From IMG/VR virus record IMGVR_UViG_2579779105_000001: a DNA stretch of 64,000 nt, one strand, 5' to 3'. The notes beneath the pieces are model-generated. The model saw only the letters and a list, made by a program, of their open reading frames with translations, ran no database searches and was not told where the DNA came from. This stretch comes from a virus (taxonomy: Duplodnaviria; Heunggongvirae; Uroviricota; Caudoviricetes). Position numbers and translations under genes: made by a program. This document shows, in pieces, positions 20,707 to 21,906 of this stretch (position 1 is the first letter of the stretch; each line of letters starts with the position of its first letter).

Positions 20707-20925
20707 ATGCAGAACAATCCGAACAAATGTCGAACGCTATGGGTGCGGCTATATATTTATGTCGTCCTCTGTTTGATTGTGTCACTGGTTCTGTATGTTT
20801 GGCTTTTGCCAAATATGATCTCATCTGACAGCACAATACTTGTATTGTTGGGAGTCCTTCTCGCGCTCATTTACCCGGCTTTTGCAGTAGTCTTTTTTCG
20901 CAAAAAAATCCAGGAAATTGATTAA
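20707..20925 (+). CDS. small membrane protein (2 TM)
   Basis: 72 aa hydrophobic; good SD; stop overlaps the next start. Confidence 0.5.
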   Translation: MQNNPNKCRTLWVRLYIYVVLCLIVSLVLYVWLLPNMISSDSTILVLLGVLLALIYPAFAVVFFRKKIQEID

Positions 20926-21752
20926 TGAAAAAAACGTTGATTAGTGCAGCGATTATTTTTGGTTCTTTATGTCTGACCGGATGCGACCGGGTAGAACCAG
21001 GCAATGTAGGGATCAAAGTAAATAAGCTGGGGGATGATAAAGGTGTCGGCGAAGTAGTTGGCGTTGGTCGCTACTGGACAGGCTGGAACACAGAAGTTTA
21101 TATCTTCCCGACCTTTAAGCAAATGAAGACCTATGATGATCCGTTCAGCTTCCAAATGAGCGACGGGACAACAATTGGTTACCACATTGGTGTAGCTTAC
21201 AAGGTTGATCCGGCAAAAGTCACAACTGTATTTCAGACCTACCGCAAAGGCGTGGATGACATTACCGACACCGACCTGCGCCAGAAGATTGCCGACGCAC
21301 TTAACCGACTGGCCAGCAAAATGACCACCGACAAATTTATCGACGGTGGCAAGTCTGAACTGCTGGATGCAGCTCTTAAAGACATCCAGGAAGAAATGAC
21401 GCCCATCGGTATTCAGGTAATGAGCCTCTCATATGTGGGCAAGCCGGAGTACCCGCCAACCGTTATCGACAGCATTAATGCCAAAGTCACGGCGAACCAG
21501 AAAACTCTGCAACGCGAGCAGGAAGTCAAGCAACGCGAAGCAGAAGCCAACATGCTGCGCGCAGAAGCTGCCGGACAGGCCGATGCCATTCGCACAAAAG
21601 CCCAGGCTGAAGCTGATGCCATTCGTTTACGCGGTGAGGCTCTGCGCCAGAACCCCGGCGTTATGGAGTTGGAAGCGATCAACAAATGGAACGGAACGCT
21701 ACCGCAGTATATGACCAGTAATACCGCTGTTCCGTTTGTTCCGGTGAAATAA
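20925..21752 (+). CDS. SPFH/band-7 family lipoprotein
   Basis: 275 aa; lipoprotein signal ending LTGC; stomatin/HflC-like region followed by an Ala/Glu-rich coiled coil. Confidence 0.55.
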   Translation: MKKTLISAAIIFGSLCLTGCDRVEPGNVGIKVNKLGDDKGVGEVVGVGRYWTGWNTEVYIFPTFKQMKTYDDPFSFQMSDGTTIGYHIGVAYKVDPAKVTTVFQTYRKGVDDITDTDLRQKIADALNRLASKMTTDKFIDGGKSELLDAALKDIQEEMTPIGIQVMSLSYVGKPEYPPTVIDSINAKVTANQKTLQREQEVKQREAEANMLRAEAAGQADAIRTKAQAEADAIRLRGEALRQNPGVMELEAINKWNGTLPQYMTSNTAVPFVPVK

Positions 21753-21906
21753 CCAAATAGAGAACATGATGGAATTTTGGACGTTTGCCGACAAGAACCC
21801 TTGGTGGACATTTTTATTTCTGCTGGTGGTTGCATATGGGGTCGAGCAAGCAGCAAAAGCCTTACGCGGTCCTGGCAAAAAGCGTAAGCGGAATTAACAG
21901 TAATCT

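Follow-up and report, generated by a model that had tools for sequence, protein, structure and literature searches.

A two-gene SPFH lipoprotein cassette of the N4 gp19-gp20 type at the tci site of a D6-like phage-plasmid

Between two tRNA genes of the virus record IMGVR_UViG_2579779105_000001 (Caudoviricetes), of which a stretch of 64,000 nucleotides was analysed (hereafter the window), lie three short open reading frames (ORFs) coding for a two-helix membrane protein of 72 amino acids (aa), an SPFH/Band-7 lipoprotein of 275 aa and a hydrophobic protein of 43 aa. A reading made without database searches (the sequence-only reading) had taken the three for one compact module inserted between phage tRNA genes, possibly serving in membrane stress or exclusion. 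The locus thus raises the question of which of these genes belong together, where else they are found and what they might do. As to the first point, there is little doubt left about the identity and anatomy of the element: it is a cassette of two genes, of the type represented by gp19 and gp20 of coliphage N4, standing where related phage-plasmids carry tciA and tciB. The features concerned are the following.

20707-20925, + strand: 72-aa ORF, predicted two-helix inner-membrane protein, homologue of N4 gp19 and P88 gp11
20925-21752, + strand: 275-aa ORF, SPFH/Band-7 lipoprotein, homologue of N4 gp20
21766-21897, + strand: 43-aa ORF, single-helix TciC homologue, backbone gene outside the SPFH cassette
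20674-21764, + strand: exchangeable two-gene cassette (1091 bp), standing in for the 631-bp tciA+tciB segment of D6
20652-20666, + strand: small conserved hairpin CCTGG-AGGCA-CCAGG, directly 5' of the left breakpoint

The cassette and the tci site

The window belongs to a D6-like phage-plasmid related to phage P1. Its genes include those for terminase, the repressor and doc, alongside a Lpa homologue and a P1-type C4 antisense RNA. Across 3.9 kb it matches the E. coli plasmid NZ_CP058619 with 99% identity, and on either flank of the cassette it is about 98% identical to phage D6. Collinearity with D6 ends at position 20673 and picks up at 21765 (breakpoints 20673/20674 and 21764/21765), and the displaced D6 segment encodes TciA, which has a TerB domain, and TciB (DUF3927), both of which are absent from the window. 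The left flank is identical whether the site holds the SPFH cassette, tciAB or nothing, the sequences parting right after ...CACCGCA; the hairpin and T-run at this junction are not a canonical terminator (fold z-score -1.19). The right junction is the start codon of the 43-aa ORF (CATGATGG).

This last ORF begins with ATGATG at 21766, four nucleotides away from the start at 21770 given by the sequence-only reading, whose coordinates are otherwise right (its ratio of nonsynonymous to synonymous substitution rates, dN/dS, is 0.063 against D6). All three ORFs are real genes and not chance ORFs. The dN/dS of the 43-aa ORF and that of the SPFH gene are low, and the Prokaryotic Genome Annotation Pipeline (PGAP) annotates these two in NZ_CP058619. 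The 43-aa ORF aligns with the unannotated ORF at the tciC position of D6, with TciC of SJ46 and with Upf69.6 of P7, and has in common with tciC-type proteins the motif FW-F-DK-P and one hydrophobic helix; as is the case in the P1 tciABC cassette, this mini-protein gene sits directly before tRNA-Ile. It is retained alongside the tciAB cassette and at the empty sites L008 and L011, which were read directly, and it is absent from the P1-like version of the SPFH locus (RCS47, L012), where the SPFH gene stops 27 bp short of the tRNA. Because tciC stays with tciAB and with empty sites and is missing from the RCS47 version, the 43-aa ORF is the backbone gene tciC and the cassette consists of two genes, not three. 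The grouping of all three ORFs into one module must accordingly be abandoned.

The other half of that proposal, an accessory insertion, stands. A comparison of homologous phage-plasmids finds the site to be polymorphic, with three states in D6-like plasmids (SPFH cassette, tciAB, empty) and either the SPFH cassette or tciABC in P1-like ones; RCS47, which is P1-like, has the same cassette at 89% identity. The pair is therefore not a universal occupant of this position, and no housekeeping role is known for it. The plasmids of PLSDB are distributed among the states as follows.

SPFH cassette: 195 plasmids, 189 nearly full length; identity at least 95% in 43 (at least 99% in 19, 95-99% in 24), 90-95% in 151, 80-90% in 1
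tciA-tciB: 119 plasmids; identity at least 99% in 27, 90-95% in 92
Empty junction (tciC only): 29 plasmids, identity not split

We interpret the high-identity bands as D6-type versions and the 90-95% bands as P1-type versions, the correspondence between band and backbone having been checked on RCS47, L012, L013 and the directly read D6-like loci only. On balance, the cassette seems to have been swapped in for tciA-tciB through recombination within the conserved flanks. Eight regions of P1-like phage-plasmids have been listed as variable, the tciABC operon among them, and nearly half of these plasmids were said to have 'lost' it (PMC9603915). That study does not mention what replaces the operon, and its view can now be corrected, many P1-like plasmids carrying the SPFH cassette instead. 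In D6-like studies tciA and tciB have been treated as morons (PMC6799933), and in a CRISPR interference screen of P1 the operon was non-essential and dispensable for plaque formation (PMC10695390).

The cassette has a mosaic structure of its own. In a comparison of the window with RCS47 (L001 3177-4221), the synonymous divergence (dS) is 0.066 in the small-protein gene and 0.51 in the adjacent SPFH gene, which points to recombination inside the cassette. When the window is compared with P88 and phiP27, DNA similarity begins only at the lipobox codon (20978); it therefore seems that signal peptides and small-protein genes have been exchanged apart from the mature SPFH part. Runs of seven A residues (20902-20908 and 20928-20934) lie on either side of the overlap between the stop of one gene and the start of the other, and in comparison with the RCS47 allele the small protein has a C-terminal tail in another frame (72 aa versus 78 aa).

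The two proteins and their linkage across phages

The larger protein is, as had been read from the letters, an SPFH/band-7 lipoprotein with a coiled-coil tail. It matches Pfam Band_7 (PF01145) over aa 22-208 with E=7.8e-31 (107.9 bits, cut-off 23.6) and phrog_200 with E=1.4e-114. Its N-terminal membrane anchor is predicted to be a signal peptide with the lipobox L-T-G-C20, followed by Asp at +2. The lipobox is kept in 22 of 24 close homologues and Asp +2 is conserved in the enterobacterial members; among 150 distant representatives, 94 match the regular expression for a lipobox. In the AlphaFold2 model (predicted local distance difference test score, pLDDT, of 77) the SPFH domain (22-175) leads into one helix of 65 residues (178-242), and a conserved motif W-N-G-x-L-P lies at the C-terminus. 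Foldseek matches this model with a probability of 1.00 and E values of about 1e-13 to HflK/HflC (7vhq), prohibitin, erlin, stomatin and flotillin, all of them cage- or ring-forming SPFH proteins, and more weakly to the major vault protein (E about 3e-8 and above). A sequence search of solved structures returned HflK and prohibitin only, both weakly (E=2.4e-4 and worse). The gene is under strong purifying selection, with dN/dS values of 0.015 against RCS47, 0.007 against P88 and 0.069 against phiP27.

The smaller protein also answers to its earlier description, having two hydrophobic helices (aa 5-38 and 43-65 in the AlphaFold2 model) and positive charge at either end, from which the positive-inside rule predicts that both ends are cytoplasmic and the loop between the helices periplasmic. 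It matches phrog_1130 (E=1.1e-14). The loop reads P-N-M-I-S-S-D-S and conforms to a conserved motif P-x-M-I-S-S-D-S; in the family alignment (A2) Ser39 is invariant and Pro35 is found in at least 90% of the sequences. Homology of this protein to TciB/DUF3927, which would have made the exchange a swap around a common partner, was rejected (hhalign probability 0.1).

The stop of the small gene and the start of the SPFH gene share one base (TAATG), and in coliphage N4 the reading frames of gp19 ('membrane protein') and gp20 ('lipoprotein'), the corresponding pair, overlap as well. The SPFH protein is 63% identical to gp20 (E=2e-128) and the 72-aa protein 32% identical to gp19 in the two-helix core (E=7e-8), the loop motif being common to both. 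In P88 (P2-like), phiP27 and many Stx2 phages the SPFH coding sequence is found at about 88-89% DNA identity, with a small two-helix ORF upstream that overlaps the SPFH start (gp11 in P88, an unannotated 62-aa ORF in phiP27). A small two-helix gene ends no more than 5 nt from the SPFH start in all 80 best IMG/VR loci, which represent three phage backbones and in which the small genes come in three sequence variants. Contexts of more distant relatives were sampled via six phage records, the alignment-based locus search having given relatives at least 93% identical. The loop motif recurs in Moo19 gp30, KpS8 gp225 and gp37 of Burkholderia phage phi644-2, and the upstream ORF is a different one in the three other virulent phages examined. 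In the virulent Vequintavirinae phage KpS8 (L095, 2632-3879), a soluble 54-aa protein, gp224, is encoded between gp225 (two-helix) and gp223 (SPFH), so that abutment of the two genes is not universal.

The two proteins have also been joined in nature. An N-terminal match to the small protein, found in 16 of the 150 best distant SPFH representatives with a profile built from stand-alone small proteins only, reveals natural in-frame fusions; a profile search for the small protein returned stand-alone proteins only. Strict linkage and natural fusions together support the view that the pair is one functional unit whose proteins work together. The fused forms keep the lipobox after the two helices, and since the SPFH domain there follows inner-membrane helices, it would be expected at the inner membrane. 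An apparent fusion of the two window proteins themselves (P0001, 347 aa) was set aside as evidence because it could be a sequencing error: what separates it from the RCS47-type sequence is the length of a homopolymer beside the start codon, either such an error or natural slippage. The AlphaFold2 model of P0001 confirmed the helical hairpin; its interface between the two parts is not reliable.

As for distribution, 412 phage records encode a member of the SPFH family according to tblastn, and the strictly virulent groups among them include N4-like Schitoviridae, Vequintavirinae, Bruynoghevirus, phiCbK-like, crAss-like, Lak and jumbo phages. The family numbers 2872 representative clusters at E<=1e-3 and 220 at E<=1e-30. 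Of 5426 complete E. coli genomes, 515 contain close relatives, which sit at 394 places on chromosomes and 201 on plasmids; Stx2 phages of enterohaemorrhagic E. coli (EHEC) are among the carriers. A general link of the pair to the 'superinfection exclusion' gene of the N4 gp18 / P22 gp17 type was considered and rejected, tblastn of the fetched loci finding that gene only in N4-like phages.

Expression context and possible role

In P88, the pair lies within a tightly packed early operon running from cox to the replication gene A; its place in phiP27 is the leftward early region, ahead of xis-int, and N4 and other virulent phages have it among genes of the replication region. A consensus scan of 20177-20935 found no promoter or terminator of the cassette's own, and the same strand continues downstream with tciC, a tRNA, a Tad2-like gene, lpa and pacAB. 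The further features of the region are these.

18502-18566, + strand: candidate repressor operator AATGTGTTAGAAATC at 18502-18516, then a sigma-70-like promoter at 18538-18566 (motif enrichment; promoter scan)
19738-19813, + strand: tRNA-Asn, start of the tRNA region (ARAGORN, Rfam)
19816-19891, + strand: tRNA-Thr, start of the tRNA region (ARAGORN, Rfam)
20357-20443, + strand: tRNA-Ser(UGA)-like gene of 87 nt, upstream backbone (ARAGORN, tRNA-Ser(tga))
21907-21982, + strand: tRNA with CAT anticodon (tRNA-Ile2 type), downstream backbone (ARAGORN; Rfam 64.7 bits)

The promoter-like site at 18538-18566 is about 2.2 kb upstream of the cassette. With up to three mismatches, the motif AATGTGTTAGAAATC occurs seven times in the window where 2.35 occurrences are expected, a number reached in none of 100 shuffles; the copies are at 18502-18516, 27827-27841, 29271-29285, 40284-40298 and three further places, that at 27827-27841 overlapping the start of the c1-like repressor gene (about 26800-27837 by coordinate mapping). 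By our own count 9 of the motif's 15 positions agree with the consensus of the C1 operator of P1, and the P1-type C1 operator itself (ATTGCTCTAATAAATTT) has no match in the window at up to three mismatches. We take these sites for a candidate set of D6-type operators and the motif for a counterpart of Op(ban) of P1/P7, and 18502-18566 possibly starts a transcription unit that contains the tRNAs, the cassette and tciC as well as the Tad2-like gene and lpa. The contexts in P88, phiP27 and N4, the lack of a promoter of its own in the region scanned and the candidate operator ahead of the unit suggest that the pair is expressed with early lytic genes and not in the resting lysogen.

The tRNAs on either side of the locus are real. 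That with the CAT anticodon is called Met by ARAGORN, the same gene being annotated tRNA-Ile in P7. The Rfam tRNA model supports three tRNAs of the region, the exception being the tRNA-Ser-like gene (no RF00005 match at the gathering threshold), for which that label is a fair one; in the D6 record its amino acid was left uncalled by tRNAscan-SE, and it may be aberrant or degenerate while conserved in D6/P7-type backbones. Between the pmgS-like gene and tRNA-Asn, some 1.2 kb (18500-19738, + strand) contain no convincing ORF and could hold an unannotated RNA or leader; a strong terminator-like hairpin lies at 19254-19271, and from 19251 on the sequence is conserved with P1, P7 and RCS47. Directly after tRNA(CAT), a 191-aa ORF (22437-23012, + strand) has a Tad2-like domain at aa 103-190 (PF11195, Thoeris anti-defence 2, E=1.7e-9), and its homologue in a sister plasmid is named 'MW1434 family type I TA system toxin' by PGAP; it may be an anti-defence gene that shares a transcription unit with the cassette. 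Further away, 10800-11005 (+ strand) is the P1-type immI immunity region within this D6-like element, with a C4 antisense RNA that scores 68.8 bits and the a1/b1 target of that RNA at 54.4 bits.

What could such a pair do? Our best explanation, which as a whole we hold to be only slightly better than evenly balanced, is that of an N4 gp19-gp20-type cassette that was exchanged by recombination and whose products build a periplasmic cage protecting the membrane. Its steps draw on what is established about lipoprotein sorting and SPFH cages. The SPFH protein would be exported, lipidated on Cys20 and held in the inner membrane through Asp +2; so anchored, it would face the periplasm, as HflK/C do. 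Its long helix and conserved W-N-G-x-L-P C-terminus would form a ring or cage above a patch of inner membrane, to which the two-helix partner would dock by its periplasmic loop, or by which it would be enclosed. The confidence of the SPFH model falls below a pLDDT of 50 at aa 245-275, a point against reading a cage from it, and these C-terminal 30 residues would fit a segment that becomes ordered only in the oligomer. This part of the explanation, cage and topology, is to our mind reasonably probable. Both proteins would be made together with the early lytic genes. In the most speculative step, the cage would insulate or stabilise the inner membrane of a cell that is infected or has been induced. 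It might be directed against DNA injected by a second phage, against colicin-type attack, against host defences that depolarise the membrane or against premature lysis, and the SPFH pair would be functionally analogous to the displaced cassette of TerB and a small membrane protein. We favour insulation or stabilisation of the membrane because virulent phages have the pair, because its timing is early and because it alternates with a TerB-type cassette; a protective role of this specific kind is nevertheless tentative, and rather doubtful when taken by itself. The early-lytic operons and the occurrence in virulent phages such as N4 also argue against a classical exclusion moron expressed by the lysogen, so that what the earlier suggestion of exclusion or membrane stress leaves is that the pair may act in exclusion or membrane protection during the lytic cycle.

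Several points weigh against this explanation. A paper of 2026 calls the reason for phage SPFH genes 'unclear' (PMC13239085), and in the literature on phage SPFH genes and N4 gp19/gp20 we found no functional study or phenotype. None of the three proteins matches a defence model of PADLOC-DB 2.0 at E values up to 1, and the idea of a known anti-phage defence system was rejected for this reason. It is a matter of prediction that the SPFH protein oligomerises, is lipidated and stays in the inner membrane and that the two proteins touch each other, and the models are of monomers only; the Arg at +3 may bear on how far the SPFH lipoprotein avoids the Lol pathway. The assignment of operators has motif enrichment as its sole basis. 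Occupying the same site as tciAB is no proof of equal function, the small membrane proteins being non-homologous and TerB cytoplasmic, and the dispensability of tciABC for P1 plaques (PMC10695390) means that either cassette may give a conditional benefit only.

Other roles can be imagined for a membrane pair of this kind, and all of them seem to us improbable to various degrees. The lipoprotein could mimic HflK/C, caging FtsH or competing with HflKC and so altering the turnover of membrane or regulatory proteins, as its best matches among solved structures (HflK/HflC in FtsH complexes), its weak similarity to the HflC/HflK families of NCBIfam and its predicted position on the periplasmic face would allow. 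Lambda carries the FtsH inhibitor cIII in its leftward early region, and the phiP27 pair likewise lies in a leftward early region, beside xis-int. The similarity is however remote (18% identity, 25 bits against a cut-off of 134), and prohibitin, erlin and stomatin score equally well, so that the match is one at superfamily level; there is one SPFH gene and no K/C pair, the partner is a two-helix mini-protein and not a protease, and the pair is also found in N4-like, Vequintavirinae and crAss-like phages, where there is no choice of lysogeny to be tuned. This modulation of FtsH is thus unlikely, and we would say the same of a device for the timing of lysis, in which a cage stabilising the inner membrane or sequestering the holin would, like an antiholin, delay triggering and enlarge the burst. 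Conservation of a membrane pair in virulent phages is in keeping with such a device, and early expression would suit a factor needed before the holin builds up; the pair nonetheless lies outside lysis cassettes in every context examined, has no homology to known antiholins, and one database label, 'RIIB lysis inhibitor', is backed by no result of the analysis. The more specific notion of a spanin-like or other lysis pair owes what appeal it has to a superficial architecture, a small membrane protein beside a long-helix lipoprotein, and is effectively refuted by fold and topology: the lipoprotein is a 275-aa SPFH fold and not a short proline-rich protein of the outer membrane, Asp +2 predicts retention in the inner membrane, the two-helix partner lacks the periplasmic coiled-coil domain that the type II inner-membrane protein of an Rz/Rz1 pair would bring, and no lysis cassette surrounds the pair. 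We give it virtually no credence.

Improbable as well, and somewhat more so than modulation of FtsH or of lysis timing, is a factor countering host defences, whose cage would neutralise abortive-infection effectors that permeabilise the inner membrane. The next gene downstream of the tRNA is the Tad2-like anti-Thoeris gene described above (22437-23012, E=1.7e-9), the unit carries tRNAs, and early timing fits. Phage-borne tRNAs can offset tRNA-targeting defences. Yet this is guilt by association with one neighbour on one backbone, the neighbours differ in P88, phiP27 and N4, and no anti-defence family matches the pair. Scarcely more attractive, and if anything a shade less so, is lysogenic conversion, with a lipoprotein expressed from the prophage and exposed, or released in vesicles, to the benefit of the bacterium in its host. 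It takes its inspiration from PM0222, a prophage HflK/C-like SPFH protein of Pasteurella multocida whose deletion is reported to attenuate the bacterium and which is reported to activate TLR1/2 (PMC9872710), PM0222 being no more than a putative homologue of the family in the window. The relatives in 515 of 5426 complete E. coli genomes, those in Stx2 phages of EHEC included, would suit a virulence factor of this sort; its weaknesses are that TLR2 activation is generic to lipoproteins, that the pair lies within early-lytic operons and no promoter belonging to it was detected, and that it is widespread in strictly virulent phages, which are incapable of converting a host.

If the proposal of a membrane-protecting cage is extended beyond this locus, gp19/gp20-type pairs might be a widespread device for compartmentalising the inner membrane, a lipid-anchored SPFH cage over its periplasmic side that the two-helix partner would organise, deployed early by temperate and virulent phages alike as a shield against superinfecting DNA, colicins and membrane-permeabilising abortive-infection effectors, and the tci site a hotspot at which non-homologous 'membrane-shield' cassettes, TerB with DUF3927 or the two-helix protein with SPFH, are exchanged. 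This generalisation is speculative, and less probable still than the protective role on which it builds. Were a membrane shield or exclusion function true, it would amount to a new mechanistic class in phage-phage and phage-host conflict and to a tractable model for bacterial SPFH cages. Whatever the function, a close relative of this SPFH gene is present in roughly a tenth of complete E. coli genomes, and the strongly constrained family to which it belongs, N4 gp20 included, has members in over 400 sequenced phages. There is now a defined unit for experiments, a two-protein pair that appears to belong to the lytic programme, and the phage-plasmid site offers natural isogenic-like variants (SPFH pair, tciAB, empty). 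The value of the present analysis is that the definition of the unit, this natural allelic series and the link to N4 gp19/gp20 make the function testable.

Comparison with known systems

Among known systems, the SPFH cages of HflK/HflC-FtsH, prohibitin and erlin are likewise built from SPFH1/2 domains followed by a long helix, and HflK/C sit on the non-cytoplasmic face of the membrane, as is predicted for the protein of the window. The identity to HflK/HflC is however about 18%, and the scores against the HflC and HflK models of NCBIfam (TIGR01932 and TIGR01933) are 25.3 and 23.5 bits, far under the equivalog cut-offs of 134.4 and 159.4, so that orthology was rejected. HflK and HflC are moreover paired proteins with N-terminal transmembrane anchors, whereas the window has a single SPFH gene whose product would have a lipid anchor, and they partner the protease FtsH, while it is a 72-aa two-helix protein that adjoins the SPFH gene here.

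In SPFH-NfeD operons (QmcA-YbbJ, PDB 8z5g), an SPFH gene also stands beside a small membrane partner, to which it is sometimes fused. QmcA is among the Foldseek hits of the window protein, at rank 37, and a search for NfeD or an OB-fold in the 72-aa partner gave no Pfam NfeD match at E values up to 1, this partner being little more than its two helices. QmcA faces the cytoplasm. The SPFH protein of the window, in contrast, is predicted to face the periplasm.

Closest in position is the tciABC cassette of P1, located at the same site in the same operon. It likewise codes for one larger protein and one small membrane protein of two helices, ahead of the tciC that both arrangements have in common. 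The tciAB and SPFH cassettes are both dispensable accessory cargo, with no homology between TerB plus DUF3927 on the one hand and the SPFH pair on the other, and the tci names themselves come from homology, not tests.

Closest in kind is gp19-gp20 of N4 (phrog_1130 and phrog_200), with the same two genes in the same order and with overlapping frames. N4 is strictly virulent and carries the pair in a block of its replication region, whereas in the window it is an exchangeable cassette of a temperate phage-plasmid. N4 gp19/gp20 names the family of the pair but leaves its function unexplained, and what we describe is an addition to an annotated, uncharacterised family of phage genes, not a new kind of system.

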